Shown here piece by piece: positions 2,037 to 43,032 of a stretch of DNA of 64,000 nt. Origin of the DNA: Escherichia coli (GTDB taxonomy: Bacteria > Pseudomonadota > Gammaproteobacteria > Enterobacterales > Enterobacteriaceae). The translations under genes were made by a program, and so were the position numbers. The first letter of the stretch is position 1. Each line of letters begins with the position of its first letter. Below the pieces are notes generated by a model. It ran no database searches. It was given only the letters and a program-made list of their open reading frames with translations, and had not been told where the DNA came from. The stretch lies in the NCBI RefSeq assembly GCF_044324875.1, contig NZ_CP172185.1. One strand, written 5' to 3'.

Positions 2037-3695
<1,659 letters not shown>

Positions 3696-35136: not shown

Positions 35137-36591
35137 ATGAGTAAAAACATAATGCACAGTCGGCATGATGAATATCATAAATTAACCCGTGGAGAACGAA
35201 TTGGTTATGGCATGGGCGACTTTGCGCAAAACCTGGTTTTCGGCACAATTGGGGGTTTTCTGGCTTTGCATATGCTGACGGTAAATACCATCAGCACGGC
35301 AACGGCAGGCTTTATTTTTCTTTTTGTCCGCATAATTAACGTGTTTTGGGATCCGATGGTCGGCACCTACGTGGATAAACGAACCTCGAAGGCAGGGAAA
35401 TATCGTCCGTGGCTGTTACGAGCCGGCGTGCCGCTGGTGATCCTCTCGGCATTACTGTTCGCGCCCATCCCCGGAGTGAAAGGTTCGGTGGCTTTCGCCT
35501 TTATTATTTATCTGGCGCTGGACCTGGTTTATTCCTTAGTCAATATTCCCTATGGCTCGCTGAATGCGTCGCTGACCCGCGACCCGGAATCGATCGATAA
35601 ACTGACCAGTACCCGCATGATGCTGGCCAACAGCGCCAACCTGCTGGTCTATACCCTGTTCCCGATGTTTGTGCAGATGGCGGCGCCGAAAGATCGCAGC
35701 CTGAAAGACACCGGCTTTTTTGGCCTTGAGCTGAATATGGGGAATTATGCCGATCCGTCGGCAAATTACGCCTGGTTTGGCGTGTACGCCATCTATATGA
35801 TCATCGGCGCGGTGGCTCTGTTTATCTGTTATAAATTCACCAAAGAACGCGTTGTCGCGACCGCCGAGCAGACCGCCAACGTCAAAACCACCGACCTTTT
35901 CCACGAGCTCCGACATAACCGCCCGCTGGTTATTCTGGGCATGTTCTTTATGCTGGCCTTTACCTTCATGTTCTTCATGAACACTGTTAACGGCTTCTTC
36001 AACCAGTACGTCGTCGGCCACTCCGAATGGATGGGCGCGGTGGGTCTCGTCGCGTCTATTCCCGGCATCGCCTTCCCGATTTTCTGGCCGAAACTGAAAA
36101 AAATCTTTGGTAAAAAAGGCTTCTTCCATCTGTTCCTCGCCATGTTTATCGTCGGCGAACTGCTGACCTACGTCTGGTCCCGCGAAGGGATGCACGACGC
36201 CCTGTGGCTGGCCTACATCGCCACCTTTATTAAACAGTGGGGCTTAACCTCCGCCACCGGCTTTATGTGGGCGCTGGTACCGGAAGTCATCGCGTACGGC
36301 GAATTAAAATCTGGCAAACGCAATGCCGCCATTATCAATGCCATTATGGGACTCTTCTTCAAGATCGGCTTCACCATCGGCGGCGCGATCCCGCTGTGGC
36401 TGCTGGCGGTGTATGGCTTTAATGAAAGCGGCGCCGTGCAGAGCGCCAGCGCCATCGACGGGATCATTATGACCGCGGTGTGGATCCCGATCGCGCTGGC
36501 CGCTATTTCGATGGTGATTATCCAGGTTTATCCGATCTCCGATAAACATGTTACCGACATCAACCGTCAGCTGGATGAGATCCGCGTGTAG
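35137..36591 (+). CDS. GPH-family glycoside/xyloside:cation symporter (XynT/YagG-like)
   Basis: ORF 35098..36591; start taken at MSKNIMHSR...; 12-TM-type protein with GPH N-terminal motif GYGMGDFAQNLVF. Confidence 0.7.
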   Translation: MSKNIMHSRHDEYHKLTRGERIGYGMGDFAQNLVFGTIGGFLALHMLTVNTISTATAGFIFLFVRIINVFWDPMVGTYVDKRTSKAGKYRPWLLRAGVPLVILSALLFAPIPGVKGSVAFAFIIYLALDLVYSLVNIPYGSLNASLTRDPESIDKLTSTRMMLANSANLLVYTLFPMFVQMAAPKDRSLKDTGFFGLELNMGNYADPSANYAWFGVYAIYMIIGAVALFICYKFTKERVVATAEQTANVKTTDLFHELRHNRPLVILGMFFMLAFTFMFFMNTVNGFFNQYVVGHSEWMGAVGLVASIPGIAFPIFWPKLKKIFGKKGFFHLFLAMFIVGELLTYVWSREGMHDALWLAYIATFIKQWGLTSATGFMWALVPEVIAYGELKSGKRNAAIINAIMGLFFKIGFTIGGAIPLWLLAVYGFNESGAVQSASAIDGIIMTAVWIPIALAAISMVIIQVYPISDKHVTDINRQLDEIRV

Positions 36592-36649
36592 TTAAAAAAA
36601 TTATAAATCAGACCGATTCGTCACTTTCCATTTTAAAAGGTGTAATGAA

Positions 36650-38329
36650 ATGTCACTTATTCAAAACCCGATATTACGCGGCTTTAATGCCGACCCCAGT
36701 ATTATTCGCGTCGAGGATACGTACTATATTGCCAACTCGACGTTTGAGTGGTTTCCGGGCGTGCGTTTACATGAGTCGAAAGACCTGAAAAACTGGAACC
36801 TGCTGCCTTCGCCGCTCTCCACCACCACCCTGCTGGACATGAAGGGCAACCCCTCCTCCGGCGGCATTTGGGCGCCGGCGCTCTCCTGGGCCGACGGGCA
36901 ATTCTGGTTGGTGTATACCGATGTGAAGGTCACCGAAGGCGCCTTCAAAGACATGACCAACTACCTGACCACCGCGAAGGATATTCGGGGCCCGTGGAGC
37001 GACCCGATCAAGCTGAACGGAGTCGGGTTTGACGCCTCGCTGTTCCATGACGACGATGGCCGGAAATATATCGTCCAGCAAACCTGGGATCACCGGGAGT
37101 ACCATCACCCCTTCGATGGCATTACCTTAACGGAGCTGGATACCAACACGCTGAAGTTAATGCCGGAAACCGCGCGCACCATCTACCGCGGCACCGCCGT
37201 AGCGCTGGTCGAGGGGCCGCACCTCTATAAACTGAACGGCTACTACTACCTGTTTGCCGCCCAGGGCGGCACCGTGTTTACCCACCAGGAGGTGGTGGCG
37301 CGGTCGAAAACCCTCGAGGCCGACAGCTTTGAAACCGAGCCGGGCGACGTGTTCTTAACCAACGTCGACACCCCGGACAGCTACATCCAGAAACAGGGCC
37401 ATGGCGCGCTGGTCTCCACCCCGGAAGGCGAATGGTATTACGCCTCGCTCTGCGCCCGGCCGTGGAATCGCCCGGGGGAATCCATCTACGACCCGCGCGG
37501 CTGGTCAACCCTCGGCCGGGAAACCGCGATCCAGAAAGTGTACTGGGATGACGAGGGCTGGCCGCGTATTGAAGGCGGTCACGGCGGGAAAACCTTCGTC
37601 GAAGGACCGAAAGACGCCATCTTCACCGAAAGCGCCAGCGATAATAGCCAGCAGGATGACTTTACGTCGCCAGCCCTCGACCCGAACTGGAATACCCTGC
37701 GGGTGCCGTTTACGGCCAAAATGGGCACCACCGGTAACGGCAAATTAACCTTAATCGGCCAGGGCTCGTTAGCCAATACGCATGATCTGTCGCTGATTGC
37801 CCGCCGCTGGCAGGCCTTCTATTTTGACGCCGCGGTGAAGGTGAAATTCGAGCCCTTCAGCTACCAGCAGATGGCCGGGTTAACGAATTACTATAACGAC
37901 CGCCACTGGAGCTTCGTCTTCCTGACCTGGAATGAAATTAACGGCAAGGTCATCGAAGTCGGCGAAAATAACCGCGGGAAATACACGTCGTACCTGAAAG
38001 ATAACGCCATCAAGGTGCCGGACGGCGTGGAATACGTCTGGTTCCGGACCAAAGTCCGCAAGCAGACCTACAGCTATGAATACAGCTTCGATGGCGTGAC
38101 GTTCACCGAGATCCCGGTCCAGCTGGATGCCGCGGTGCTGTCCGATGACTATGTGTTGCAGAGCTACGGCGGGTTCTTTACCGGGGCGTTCGTCGGCCTG
38201 GCGGCGGTAGACTACGCCGGGTACGGCACCCAGGCTGAGTTTTATCAGTTCGAGTATCAGGAGCTGGGCGATAGCTTAGCGGCCGATGGCAGCTACAGCT
38301 GGGAGGCTGGCGAGACGCGGGATAAGTAA
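36650..38329 (+). CDS. Glycoside hydrolase family 43 beta-xylosidase (XynB/YagH-like)
   Basis: 559 aa; MSLIQNPILRGFNADPSIIRVEDTYYIANSTFEWFPGV typical GH43 N-terminus. Confidence 0.8.
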   Translation: MSLIQNPILRGFNADPSIIRVEDTYYIANSTFEWFPGVRLHESKDLKNWNLLPSPLSTTTLLDMKGNPSSGGIWAPALSWADGQFWLVYTDVKVTEGAFKDMTNYLTTAKDIRGPWSDPIKLNGVGFDASLFHDDDGRKYIVQQTWDHREYHHPFDGITLTELDTNTLKLMPETARTIYRGTAVALVEGPHLYKLNGYYYLFAAQGGTVFTHQEVVARSKTLEADSFETEPGDVFLTNVDTPDSYIQKQGHGALVSTPEGEWYYASLCARPWNRPGESIYDPRGWSTLGRETAIQKVYWDDEGWPRIEGGHGGKTFVEGPKDAIFTESASDNSQQDDFTSPALDPNWNTLRVPFTAKMGTTGNGKLTLIGQGSLANTHDLSLIARRWQAFYFDAAVKVKFEPFSYQQMAGLTNYYNDRHWSFVFLTWNEINGKVIEVGENNRGKYTSYLKDNAIKVPDGVEYVWFRTKVRKQTYSYEYSFDGVTFTEIPVQLDAAVLSDDYVLQSYGGFFTGAFVGLAAVDYAGYGTQAEFYQFEYQELGDSLAADGSYSWEAGETRDK

Positions 38330-38411
38330 AAGAGAGTGGGCCCACGCTACCGGTAAGGTAGCGTGGGGTTTGTGGTGTGTTTGATGTAATTAAAGCGAGC
38401 GCTGTCGGATG

Positions 38412-39050
38412 TCAGTCTGTGGGGCGCAGCCGGGCCTTCAGCTCTTCGGGGGTAAACGGCGGATCTCGCCGGTGCAGCATCGCATGGCAGTTGGGACATA
38501 CCGGGATCAGATCGGTTTCAGGGTTCAGGCGGTAGTCCTGCTTTATCCCGGCCAGCGGGATGAGATGGTGGATATGGATAAAGCCCTGGCCGATATCGCC
38601 ATAGCGGCTGGCCATATCCAGACCGCATACCTGACACTGGCAGCCATGCAGGCGAAGCGCCGCCTGACGAGCCTGACGGTCGCGCTCATAGCGATTGACC
38701 ACCACCTGCAACGCCGCCCCTTCCACGTACTCCATGGTCGTCTGCCCCTCATCGGGGAAAAGCGCAACCTCGTCATCGCCAGCGCCCTGCGACGCGATCG
38801 TAAATCCTTGCTCCAGTAACAGACGCACGCATTTTGATTTAATCCCCCCGCTGAAATCCGCCGGGGTAAATTCCGTTCCCGTCGCAAGCGTGGCCGCTAA
38901 CCCGACGATGGCTTTTGAAGGATACCGACGCCCCTCAAACTCGATCTCATACAGACGCGCGCTTTTAAACTGATGCGCAACGCCTGCATCGTAAGCGCGA
39001 ATGGCGGCGATGATGCATTCCCTGGATAAATGGTCCGGTAGTTTTTTCAT
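38412..39050 (-). CDS. HNH-family endonuclease with unassigned ~110-aa N-terminal domain
   Basis: 212 aa; C-terminal CQVCG...HIHHLIPLA...NPETDLIPVCPNCHAMLHRR HNH/zinc-finger core. Confidence 0.7.
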   Translation of the reverse strand: MKKLPDHLSRECIIAAIRAYDAGVAHQFKSARLYEIEFEGRRYPSKAIVGLAATLATGTEFTPADFSGGIKSKCVRLLLEQGFTIASQGAGDDEVALFPDEGQTTMEYVEGAALQVVVNRYERDRQARQAALRLHGCQCQVCGLDMASRYGDIGQGFIHIHHLIPLAGIKQDYRLNPETDLIPVCPNCHAMLHRRDPPFTPEELKARLRPTD

Positions 39051-39229
39051 AAGACATAGCTATCTGATGGCGCGAAGCTTGAGTATAAATAGAAAGCTAT
39101 GGTCTTTTCGAACAAATAACTGGCAGTGATAATTAAATCGCGATCCACGTAGAATCGCCGCATCTGGTAGGTTGATCGGCAAGGATTTTGCGAGCATCAT
39201 CGCATTTATTTAGCTGCCAATGTAACGCT

Positions 39230-40099
39230 ATGCCCTCCAGCACGACCCTGCAACACGCGATCGAGAACATCACCATCTGGCGCAAAGGCGAACAGCGTGC
39301 GCCGCATAAACCACTATTGCTGCTGTACGTCCTCTCGCAATACCAGCGCGGCCATGCGCGGATGTTCGACTACGCCTCGGAGATACGTGATGAGCTGCAT
39401 AGCCTGCTGGAACGCTTTGGCCCGCAGCGCCGCCAGTACCGGCCGGACATGCCCTTCTGGCGCCTGAAAGGCGACGGCTTCTGGGAGCTACACAACAGCG
39501 AACAGTGCTCAACCCAGGGCAGCCGACAGCCGCCCGGCAAAGAGCTGGAGCTCTGCCACGTCGCCGGCGGCTTTGATGAGCAGCATTTTGCGTTACTTAA
39601 CAGAAATAAGAAGCTGATCAATACCCTCGCCCATCAGATCCTCGAGGCGCACTTTCCGGAGAGTATTCAGGAAGAACTGGCTGAAGAGATGGGGTTTGAT
39701 CTGCTGCAGATCCGCAAAGAGCGCGACCCGCATTTTCGCCAGCAGGTGCTGCGCGCCTATAACTATGAGTGCGCTATCTGCGGCTTCAATATGCGCCATG
39801 ATAATACCTCCGTCGCCCTGGAAGCGGCCCATATCAAGTGGAAGCAGCACGGCGGCCCCTGCGAAATCCCTAACGGCCTGGCGCTCTGCGCGATTCACCA
39901 TAAGGCTTTTGATAAAGGATCCATTGGTCTGGATGAGGATATGCGCATCCAGGTTTCGCCGGCGGTGAACGGCGGAGGCATCGTTGGCAGGTTGTTCTGG
40001 GATTTTGATGGTAAGCCGATTACCTTGCCGATGGGGAAAGAATGCTATCCCCAGGAGGGGTTTGTGGCGTGGCACCGGCGGGAGGTGTTCAGGGGATGA
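39230..40099 (+). CDS. HNH-family endonuclease with unassigned ~190-aa N-terminal domain (candidate modification-dependent restriction enzyme)
   Basis: ORF 39188..40099; YNYECAICGF...AAHIKWKQHGGP...NGLALCAIHHKAFDKG HNH core; divergent from the neighbouring HNH gene. Confidence 0.7.
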   Translation: MPSSTTLQHAIENITIWRKGEQRAPHKPLLLLYVLSQYQRGHARMFDYASEIRDELHSLLERFGPQRRQYRPDMPFWRLKGDGFWELHNSEQCSTQGSRQPPGKELELCHVAGGFDEQHFALLNRNKKLINTLAHQILEAHFPESIQEELAEEMGFDLLQIRKERDPHFRQQVLRAYNYECAICGFNMRHDNTSVALEAAHIKWKQHGGPCEIPNGLALCAIHHKAFDKGSIGLDEDMRIQVSPAVNGGGIVGRLFWDFDGKPITLPMGKECYPQEGFVAWHRREVFRG

Positions 40100-41301
40100 G
40101 GGGGATGGTGATAAGCGGGTTTCGATGTTGAGCGTAGGGTTTAGGGATTGGGACTGTGTTTCGGAGAGGATTTCGTGGTTGATCAATGATTGGTCGTGGC
40201 TAGGTTAAAGGACTTATTTATTGATTGTTTTGATATTGATGCGAAGGCCTGACTCAAACATGCGATTTAACCTCATGATTTAAAATTGTTAATAATAAAC
40301 AACACCATCCTATACCAACACAGATACCAACACGAAAAATCACTGGTTTTCGGCATCGAACCAGGACAATCAGGTCCTGATTGAGATACCGAGCTCTGTT
40401 ACTCGTCATCTGCCTCGACAGGCTCCATTGCATCAAGTGGTACTCGCACCATCGCGATAGATCCAATCCGGATAAAAGCATCTTCCCCATCTATATCGGT
40501 TAACTGATATCGCTCACTTGATGCCGGATAATTGTGTCGATTGGCAACAGTGTACTCTTTCGTACAGCCAGAATGTGGCAGACTGAGGTGGAATAGATAA
40601 CGTCCGTATGCCCGCTGACCACCTCCGGGCGGGAGAGTGTGGTATCTGACATCATCATTTTTCCTTTTGGTTTATAAACGAAAACGCCAGCCGTATTCAG
40701 GCTGGCGTCAGGGTAATGAAGCGTGGTGAGTGATATTCACCGGTTCTGGTGCAGAAGCTGCAGATGACGCAGGGTACGGACATCCTCTCTGGCCTGTTCG
40801 ATACAGGGCAACAGTGCTGCCGATGTCAGTAGGCTATTTCCGGTTGATATACCCTGCCCGTAAATTACAGGGCAGGAATAGTATTATTAATTTCGGGAGA
40901 AGCTTAAGGTTGCCACATCGACAGTTTCATCACACAGGTTTTTGTCCTGAAATACTTTCTTATTTTTGACTTTAGCTAGCCATTGCCCGACATGAAGGGA
41001 GGGTACAGTGATGATACCGTCCTCATTACTTACAAAGGTAAGTTCTGCTTTATGAGCCGAATGTTTATGCTCTGCCGCATGAGTATGGCGGGATGATTTC
41101 AGATAACTGACAGAGTCAAGCTCCAGAGTGGCTCCGGCAAGCGGGGAAGTTTTATACAGAACTTTCAGCTTCACATCTTCACCGAAACGACTGATATCGG
41201 ATAACGGAATTAGACTGGCCCCCTGAATCTCCAGACAACCAGTATCACTTAAATAAGTGATAGTCTTAATACTAGTTTTTAGACTAGTCATTGGAGAACA
41301 G

Positions 41302-41667
41302 ATGATTGATGTCTTAGGGCCGGAGAAACGCAGACGGCGTACCACACAGGAAAAGATCGCAATTGTTCAGCAGAGCTTTGAACCGGGGATGACGGTCTCC
41401 CTCGTTGCCCGGCAACATGGTGTAGCAGCCAGCCAGTTATTTCTCTGGCGTAAGCAATACCAGGAAGGAAGTCTTACTGCTGTCGCCGCCGGAGAACAGG
41501 TTGTTCCTGCCTCTGAACTTGCTGCCGCCATGAAGCAGATTAAAGAACTCCAGCGCCTGCTCGGCAAGAAAACGATGGAAAATGAACTCCTCAAAGAAGC
41601 CGTTGAATATGGACGGGCAAAAAAGTGGATAGCGCACGCGCCCTTATTGCCCGGGGATGGGGAGTAA
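41302..41667 (+). CDS. insC: IS2 OrfA (InsC)
   Basis: [56 protein letters not shown]. Confidence 0.9.
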
Positions 41668-42530
41668 GCTTAGTCAGCCGTTGTCTCCGGGTGTCGCGTG
41701 CGCAGTTGCACGTCATTCTCAGACGAACCGATGACTGGATGGATGGCCGCCGCAGTCGTCACACTGATGATACGGATGTGCTTCTCCGTATACACCATGT
41801 TATCGGAGAGCTGCCAACGTATGGTTATCGTCGGGTATGGGCGCTGCTTCGCAGACAGGCAGAACTTGATGGTATGCCTGCGATCAATGCCAAACGTGTT
41901 TACCGGATCATGCGCCAGAATGCGCTGTTGCTTGAGCGAAAACCTGCTGTACCGCCATCGAAACGGGCACATACAGGCAGAGTGGCTGTGAAAGAAAGTA
42001 ATCAGCGATGGTGCTCTGACGGGTTCGAGTTCCGCTGTGATAACGGAGAAAAACTGCGAGTCACGTTCGCGCTGGACTGCTGTGACCGTGAGGCACTGCA
42101 CTGGGCGGTCACTACGGGCGGCTTCAACAGTGAAACAGTACAGGACGTCATGCTGGGAGCGGTGGAACGCCGCTTCGGCAACGAGCTTCCGGCGTCTCCA
42201 GTAGAGTGGCTGACGGATAATGGTTCATGCTACCGGGCTAATGAAACACGGCAGTTTGCCCGGATGTTGGGGCTTGAACCGAAGAGCACGGCGGTGCGGA
42301 GTCCGGAGAGTAACGGCATAGCAGAGAGCTTCGTGAAAACGATAAAGCGTGACTACATCAGTGTCATGCCCAAACCAGACGGGTTAACGGCAGCAAAGAA
42401 CCTTGCAGAGGCGTTCGAGCATTATAACGAATGGCATCCGCATAGTGCACTGGGTTATCGCTCGCCACGGGAATATCTACGGCAGCAAGCCAGTAATGGG
42501 TTAAGTGATAACAGGTGTCTGGAAATATAG
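41625..42530 (+). CDS. insD: IS2 OrfB (InsD) transposase, expressed by frameshift fusion with OrfA
   Basis: 301 aa, DDE integrase core; overlaps orfA in -1 frame. Confidence 0.9.
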
Positions 42531-43032
42531 GGGCAAATCCAGGAATGATTTCAAGCTCATCCCCTATTGGATACTGATAGAGTTGTGCTGGCATCTGCTG
42601 TTCACCAGGAATAAAAGATTTTGCATATTTAGTCACAAACTCACAGTATGCCACATCATTTCTGCCCTCCCGGCTGACAGGCTTCCATCCTGACGAGGTT
42701 CTCGACCAGTATCCCGGTTTCATTTTCGTTGACAGAACGTAGCTATTACCGTTGCCTGCAGTCTCAATTTTATAGACATAATCCGTGGATGTTGGCTTCA
42801 GCGTTATTGTCTCTTTCCCGTTATAAAGCCGGGGAGTTTCAAAGAAATCCCTTCTGTCAGGAATCGTGCCCTTTGAGGGGAAATTATGACCATAACCAAT
42901 CTCTGCGATAACGTTGTTCTCTGCCTGTTTGCCGGTAATCCAGACATCATGGGCCAGGACATGCCCCGATGCTGTCAGACAAAGAGCTAAGATATAGCCT
43001 GTATTTTTCATCATGATTTATTTCCTGAGAGG

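Follow-up and report, generated by a model that had tools for sequence, protein, structure and literature searches.

A 64,000-nucleotide stretch of Escherichia coli DNA (contig NZ_CP172185.1, assembly GCF_044324875.1; the whole stretch is called the window) harbors two adjacent genes, here named gene A and gene B. According to the open reading frame (ORF) listing and the translations, they are intact, divergently oriented, and encode HNH nucleases (Table 1). The gene A ORF contains the motifs CQVCG...HIHHLIPL...VCPNCHAMLHR, and the gene B ORF contains CAICGF...AAHIKWKQHGGP...CAIHHKAFDKG. The longest ORF of gene B (39188 to 40099, plus strand; 303 aa) begins with a TTG at 39188; the start used in RefSeq and in every homologue is the ATG at 39230, which gives 289 aa. 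We found 1175 homologues of gene A and more than 3300 of gene B, and the ratio of nonsynonymous to synonymous substitution rates (dN/dS) was 0.05 to 0.16 across the two genes (gene A, 0.07 to 0.16; gene B, 0.05 to 0.12) and in both halves of gene A. Based on these homologue numbers and on the dN/dS values in both genes, we conclude that A and B are real genes and not chance ORFs.

A first-pass annotation, made from the sequence alone, had described a divergent pair of HNH nucleases with unrelated N-terminal domains. Indeed, PF01844 was detected in A and PF13391 in B. The N-terminal domains, identified by PDB, NCBIfam, and PADLOC searches and from precomputed Pfam hits, comprise ~110 aa in A, which contain a domain like the head of the restriction enzyme ScoMcrA, and ~165 to 180 aa in B, which contain a sulfur-binding domain (SBD). 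In line with the earlier description, they were unrelated to each other (hhalign probability, 0.2%). RefSeq labels gene B as "phosphorothioated DNA-binding restriction endonuclease," and thus a function related to phosphorothioate (PT)-modified DNA is already annotated. The pairing of the two genes is the part that is new beyond this annotation.

Table 1. Genes and sequence features of the locus (window coordinates, except where a comparison locus with an L number is named)
Feature	Position	Strand	Description
Gene A	38412..39050	-	212 aa; head-HNH nuclease (ScoMcrA_N plus McrA-type HNH); RefSeq WP_045146948.1, "HNH endonuclease"
Head domain of gene A	38787..39041	-	Residues ~4-88; homologous to ScoMcrA residues 3-94
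HNH (beta-beta-alpha-Me) core of gene A	38466..38636	-	Residues 139-195; CxxC...CxxC zinc ligands and HH...N...H motif; Pfam PF01844, E 3.6e-6
Gene B	39230..40099	+	289 aa; SBD-HNH_2, predicted EcoWI-like PT-dependent restriction endonuclease; RefSeq WP_045146950.1
SBD of gene B	39260..39694	+	Residues ~11-155; aligns with the ScoMcrA SBD (5zmo/5zmm)
HNH_2 core of gene B	39770..39934	+	Residues 181-235; Pfam PF13391, E 1.9e-9; resembles the TagI HNH (6ghs)
Divergent control region	39051..39229	.	179 bp, AT-rich (42% GC); homologous to Citrobacter and Klebsiella cassette spacers
Sigma-70-like promoter candidate, gene A	39082..39111	-	TCGAAA-18-TATACT; consensus match only
Sigma-70-like promoter candidate, gene B	39126..39155	+	GTGATA-18-TAGAAT; consensus match only
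Conserved box upstream of gene B	39172..39213	+	TTGATC, 11 nt, 16-nt palindrome TGCGAGCATCATCGCA (39189-39204), TTATTTA
Terminator-like G+C-rich hairpin	38341..38367	.	Between GH43 end (38329) and gene A end (38412); 11-bp stem, 8 GC pairs; consensus scan only
Sister cassette	L099 2714-4373; L111 5065-6724 (E. coli BE2-5)		Second E. coli locus
Spacer relic	L083 4001-4156; L085 and L086 3501-3656		156-bp match to the A-B spacer

Domain architecture of the two nucleases

By every feature that can be read from its sequence, gene B is a new allele of the known EcoWI/SprMcrA family of PT-dependent enzymes. This assignment is based on several observations. First, the protein matched the NCBIfam profile NF045808 with 440.5 bits (curated cutoff, 180) over profile positions 2 to 284 of 284. 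Second, its full-length, gapless alignment with the tested enzyme WP_000199891 of E. coli W/LY180 shows 73% identity. Third, the residues of the sulfur pocket are kept: in the alignment with ScoMcrA, H26-K27 correspond to H116-R117, and M74-P75 correspond to Y164-P165. In most SBD homologues R117 is replaced by Lys, P165 is critical, and Y164M strengthens binding (PMC6224610). Homologues of gene B carry the Pfam domain PF26340 (DNA-SBD_ScoMcrA). Furthermore, the HNH_2 core is intact, and its motif AAHI...NGLALCAIHHKAFD was invariant among 10 homologues.

The SBD of WP_000199891 bound Rp- but not Sp-phosphorothioate DNA, and the gene lowered transformation with the Salmonella dnd cluster ~1000-fold (PMC6224610). 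EcoWI is a 33.4-kDa protein that, with Mg2+, cuts GpsAAC/GpsTTC at N7/N6 as a homodimer, and the cloned enzyme is active on its own (PMC7461809). The calculated mass of WP_000199891 is 33.41 kDa. The papers and their supplement gave no accession for EcoWI; from the strain name and the equal mass we infer that WP_000199891 is this enzyme. The PT dependence and the site preference of gene B are predicted by analogy with this 73%-identical tested enzyme. Both proteins have the SBD-HNH_2 architecture (289 versus 291 aa) with the same pocket and catalytic residues, and both genes are preceded by the same conserved palindrome. However, gene B belongs to a separate clade, with 79 to 86% identity within it, and is linked to a head-HNH gene, whereas the EcoWI-type genes of E. 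coli W, EC291, and Salmonella stand alone in the tRNA-Leu island; solo SBD-HNH genes were also found in Enterobacter.

An SBD-like N terminus (HKP...PFW motifs) was also seen in a 289-aa protein from a Pontiellaceae metagenome-assembled genome (L032, 5411-6280), which has a HIT-type C-terminal domain (HVHIHVIP) in place of a nuclease domain; a Vsr-like gene and an X-HNH gene are located nearby.

The N-terminal 90 residues of gene A had a single match among solved structures, the ScoMcrA head (phmmer E 2.8e-8; family profile E 1.1e-9), and are named PF26345 (ScoMcrA_N) in the precomputed Pfam hits. This head is followed, after a linker of ~20 residues, by the PF01844 HNH, giving the order and the total length (~210 aa) of the head-HNH family. 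The HNH is homologous to those of EcoKMcrA (6ghc; E 1e-4) and of the ScoMcrA C terminus, and residues C139, C142, H161, H162, C185, N187, C188, H189, and H193 were invariant among 29 homologues. No modification-reader fold or recognized sensor domain was found in gene A by Pfam, structure-based, and profile searches, and SAD_SRA matched neither protein. By its domain content, gene A is the minimal head-HNH form without a recognized sensor.

The first-pass annotation had suggested modified-DNA reader domains. This applies to gene B, whose SBD type is a demonstrated PT-DNA reader; in gene A, whose N terminus carries a ScoMcrA head, no reader fold was recognized. It had also proposed type IV restriction. 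Gene B does belong, at full length and above the cutoff, to a PT-dependent restriction family; as to the class, however, the discoverers of the EcoWI-like enzymes assigned them to a Type IIM/IIS-like group and not to type IV (PMC7461809).

ScoMcrA of Streptomyces coelicolor (PDB 5ZMM), a head-SBD-SRA-HNH type IV enzyme, combines domain types from both genes: its head and C-terminal HNH have their counterparts in gene A, and its SBD (residues 104-246) has its counterpart in gene B. In contrast to ScoMcrA, the domains described here are split over two divergent genes, an SRA domain is lacking, gene B contains an HNH of another type (HNH_2, TagI-like), and the sequence identity is only ~25 to 36%. 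A ScoMcrA-type enzyme carries four domains, SRA included, in a single chain, and judged by its sequence the locus does not encode one. Gene A also shares its overall plan with EcoKMcrA (NEco-HNH; 6GHC), in which a small domain at the N terminus precedes the HNH. The homology is confined to the HNH, however, since the gene A head showed no sequence or fold match to the 5-methylcytosine/5-hydroxymethylcytosine-binding NEco domain. Finally, the modification-dependent PUA/EVE-HNH and SRA-HNH endonucleases (such as VcaM4I and TagI) follow a sensor-plus-HNH logic, and in many relatives of gene A an EVE, SRA, or DUF3427 domain is inserted between head and HNH. Gene A differs in that it has no such sensor, its head being joined to the HNH by the linker.

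A profile search with the head retrieved 3550 clusters (50% identity) at E <= 1e-3, and domain partners were counted in the best 145 representatives. The partners were HNH (40), HNH_2 (18), EVE (14), McrB-like AAA_5 (8), nSTAND3 (7), NOV_C (6), SAD_SRA (3), DUF3427 (3), AspBHI_N (1), and McrB_N (1). Most common was a head followed by ~130 to 190 aa and a McrA-type HNH (32/145), while a direct head-HNH fusion as in gene A was found in 20/145; where the inserted domain was recognizable, it was EVE, DUF3427, or SRA. Because partners such as EVE, SAD_SRA, DUF3427, AspBHI_N, McrB_N-AAA_5, NOV_C, and HNH make up type IV architectures, the head can be regarded as a recurrent N-terminal module of modification-dependent restriction proteins, which places gene A in the right functional neighborhood. 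A further head-SBD fusion was not detected among these 145 representatives with a local SBD hidden Markov model and jackhmmer.

Conserved pairing and control region

The divergent unit, with head-HNH and SBD-HNH_2 genes separated by 136 to 180 bp, recurs in six unrelated genomic contexts. In E. coli, it is located next to the GH43 sugar block of the window and, at a second locus, between nanS and an McrBC-like pair. In Klebsiella aerogenes it adjoins a type I hsdR and an Mrr_N-HNH gene, and in Klebsiella sp. R445 it adjoins Wadjet genes. Three Citrobacter species carry it between flanking genes that differ from those of the window locus, and in Citrobacter farmeri it lies between sugar-kinase and type VI secretion system genes. 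Nucleotide homology between the loci starts within ~15 to 40 nt of the gene A stop codon and stops within ~50 nt of that of gene B, and the flanks are unrelated.

The identities to the window genes followed the same rank order for both proteins (78, 70, 67, and 64% for A; 86, 85, 80, and 79% for B). Synonymous sites were mostly saturated between cassettes, and still dN/dS was 0.05 to 0.16, indicating strong purifying selection. In a quick distance (neighbor-joining) tree, all paired head-HNH genes formed one clade, apart from two solo clades, one of which is borne by integrative conjugative elements (ICEs). Head-HNH genes without a partner are common and were found in ICEs and defense islands, which implies that the protein can function without gene B. 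We conclude from these comparisons that the pair was inherited and moved as one unit, although the pairing is not obligatory; the "module" of the first-pass annotation is thus borne out by joint inheritance and movement across the six contexts. In the cassette flanks, only short, chance-level repeat matches were detected, and the cassette has no recombinase of its own. In a full-text literature search, these domains did not come up under their Pfam names in any paper, and the published study of SBD-HNH gene neighborhoods was confined to dnd genes (PMC7461809).

In K. aerogenes (L087, 2260-4636), Mrr_N-HNH, SBD-HNH_2, and ScoMcrA_N-HNH genes stand side by side next to the type I hsdR. They form a trio of HNH nucleases with three different N-terminal domains.

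The promoter candidates of genes A and B stand back-to-back in the spacer between the genes; both are consensus matches, from a scan that found 3 sites versus 1.6 expected. In addition, a box composed of TTGAnn, 11 nt, and TGCGAGCATCATCGCA hardly varied among nine loci, both paired and solo, in contrast to the diverged sequence around it. The window was compared for this purpose with L002, L084, L087, L094, L003, L099, L104, and L107. The palindrome itself is invariant and, preceded by TTGAnn, was found in every case examined ~25 nt before the SBD-HNH start codon. Because paired and solo loci share the box, it goes with gene B and not with the pair, and its conservation suggests that it may serve the SBD-HNH gene as a core promoter or an operator. 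An Rfam search of positions 36000 to 43000 at E <= 1 revealed no RNA family, which argues that the conserved spacer is not a known RNA.

Island context and decayed copies in E. coli

A 2-kb region with the pair was 100% identical in 11 of 5426 complete E. coli genomes. In all 11 (11/11), the pair comes after a block of xylA, MFS, and GH43 sugar genes inside a mosaic island rich in insertion sequences (IS). The GC content is 58.7% for gene A, 58.2% for gene B, 58.2% for the adjoining GH43 gene, and 42% for the spacer, compared with 46% in the 1.1 kb beyond gene B and 50.7% in the window as a whole. The earlier placement of the pair as the last genes of a GC-rich block is therefore roughly right. 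Directly past gene B (40100 to 42530), only short pseudogene fragments, annotated in strain ES1 as pieces of a helix-turn-helix regulator, and an IS2-type element with InsC/InsD-like ORFs (41257 to 42530) were found, which marks this segment as an eroded island junction. The cassette allele of the window has 58 to 59% GC, versus 48 to 52% in the cassettes of Klebsiella, Citrobacter, and the E. coli nanS locus, and a 98%-identical gene B protein is on record from Klebsiella quasipneumoniae (P0266). The higher GC content and this near-identical protein suggest that the window cassette was recently imported together with the GC-rich xylA/GH43 block.

The sister cassette between nanS and the McrBC-like pair (64% identity for A and 79% for B) is intact in 326 of the 5426 complete genomes, and fragments of it were present in 4946; the complete E. 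coli genomes with an intact cassette number 337. In K-12 MG1655 (L110, 3046-3403), ~5 codons of head-HNH and ~250 nt of SBD-HNH remain, annotated as a "restriction endonuclease" pseudogene. The small K-12 protein YthB (32 aa, MNKLPAHLSRQNCKIASTNLSEIIPRRAAVLK; L110, ~3050-3150, minus strand) consists of the first head-HNH codons (MNKLPDHL...) fused to a 29-codon ORF (MNAHLSRQNCKIASTNLSEIIPRRAAALK), which in intact loci is located just downstream of head-HNH. YthB thus appears to be a deletion chimera, which may accordingly be translated from the start of the relic head-HNH gene.

In ~1500 of the 5426 genomes, 156 bp of the A-B spacer (window 39055 to 39210; ~97% identity) were present in single copy at one locus. 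This relic ends exactly at an ISKpn26 (IS5-like) pseudogene and, on the other side, at an IS256-family transposase fragment, and both nuclease genes are gone. We considered a repetitive extragenic palindromic (REP) or miniature inverted-repeat transposable element (MITE)-type repeat and rejected it, because the match is single copy, at one locus, and has exact IS5-like and IS256 bounds. Rather, the sequence looks like the scar of an IS-eroded cassette copy.

Possible functions of the cassette

From the observed domain identities, pocket and catalytic residues, selection, and co-inheritance, we infer, with a probability of roughly 60%, that the locus is a mobile defense cassette in which an EcoWI-like PT-dependent enzyme (gene B) and an autonomous second nuclease (gene A) constitute a two-specificity barrier. 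By analogy with EcoWI, gene B would dimerize and dock with its N-terminal SBDs on Rp-phosphorothioate linkages introduced by Dnd systems of other bacteria, probably in the context GpsAAC/GpsTTC, and its HNH_2 domains would cleave both strands at a distance of a few base pairs. Plasmids and phages last replicated in a dnd+ host would thereby be destroyed in a presumably dnd-negative host. Gene A would probably act as the autonomous second nuclease, with the head supplying DNA or target recognition; we hold this with less confidence than the prediction for gene B. Together they would provide the two-specificity barrier, and both genes would be transcribed separately from the shared control region.

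In strain ES1, the annotation of the 20 kb to each side of the cassette lists no dnd or ssp gene, a result that covers the flanks, the host-wide absence being presumed. The ScoMcrA head is small and flexibly attached, and the authors of the structure assigned no function to it (PMC6224610). Several points weigh against this proposal. In the literature searched, we found no experimental data on the head or on any head-HNH protein. Furthermore, a separate sensor region between head and HNH is more common than the direct fusion, so that specificity may reside elsewhere than in the head, and gene A may be without a specificity element. Finally, the long-lived pairing fits cooperation of the two proteins as well as it fits their independence.

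Such cooperation would amount to a two-component, split ScoMcrA, in which head-HNH and SBD-HNH act jointly, for example, as a hetero-oligomer or by recruitment. We regard this explanation as rather unlikely. In it, the SBD of gene B would find the PT site, and the HNH of gene A would contribute second-strand or processive cleavage or would gate gene B. The idea derives from the single ScoMcrA chain, which links the head and McrA-type HNH of gene A with the SBD of gene B in the manner of a Rosetta stone. It is also consistent with the lack of a recognized sensor in gene A and with the history of the pair, which has a single origin, diverged congruently, and stayed together in six contexts past synonymous saturation. 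However, the tested solo enzyme with 73% identity needs no partner to restrict and cleave PT-DNA, which it does as a homodimer (PMC6224610, PMC7461809), and both genes exist alone in many lineages. In addition, the upstream box of gene B is shared by paired and solo loci, and the paired gene B proteins keep their catalytic residues. Rather unlikely, too, is the idea that the ScoMcrA head serves to couple two different HNH nucleases, or to license targets between them, in a PT-sensing two-component system. If this were true, the cassette would represent a new multisubunit class of modification-dependent restriction enzyme, and the head (3550 protein clusters) would act in type IV systems generally as a partner or regulatory module.

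Less probable still is that gene A is a nuclease of mobile elements, serving ICE or island maintenance or mobility or acting in a toxin-like manner, and that it is not a restriction enzyme and merely hitchhikes beside the PT-dependent gene B. The closest solo clade does reside in ICEs, adjoining TraI_2 relaxase and ArdC genes, and the cassette moved repeatedly between loci. On the other hand, the cassette is not framed by repeats and lacks its own recombinase, and the other partners of the head are overwhelmingly type IV modules (EVE, SRA, DUF3427, McrB). Moreover, the neighbors of the cassette are defense genes (type I restriction-modification, Mrr_N-HNH, Wadjet, McrBC), and hitchhiking leaves the survival of the divergent pair as a unit across genera unexplained. 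The suggestion, raised with the first-pass annotation, that both genes are homing-endonuclease remnants of a degraded prophage is very improbable: both HNH cores match phage HNH families (PHROGs) and the island is an IS-rich mosaic, but the phage matches are limited to the cores (none of 50,697 phage records covered >=80% of gene A by tblastn), neither ORF is truncated, strong purifying selection acts on both, and no prophage genes flank the cassette in any of the six contexts.

Gene B adds an allele to a family that is already used for the mapping of PT sites (EcoWI-seq), and its specificity could differ from that of EcoWI. For E. coli, the cassette illustrates how quickly such defenses decay, since more than 90% of the complete genomes contain only wreckage of the sister copy. 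Beyond this species, the pairing offers a handle on the ScoMcrA head, which is present in thousands of predicted restriction proteins without an assigned function. Here the head-HNH protein is minimal and its SBD-HNH partner fixed, a simple setting in which to ask whether the head binds DNA, senses a modification, or couples nucleases.

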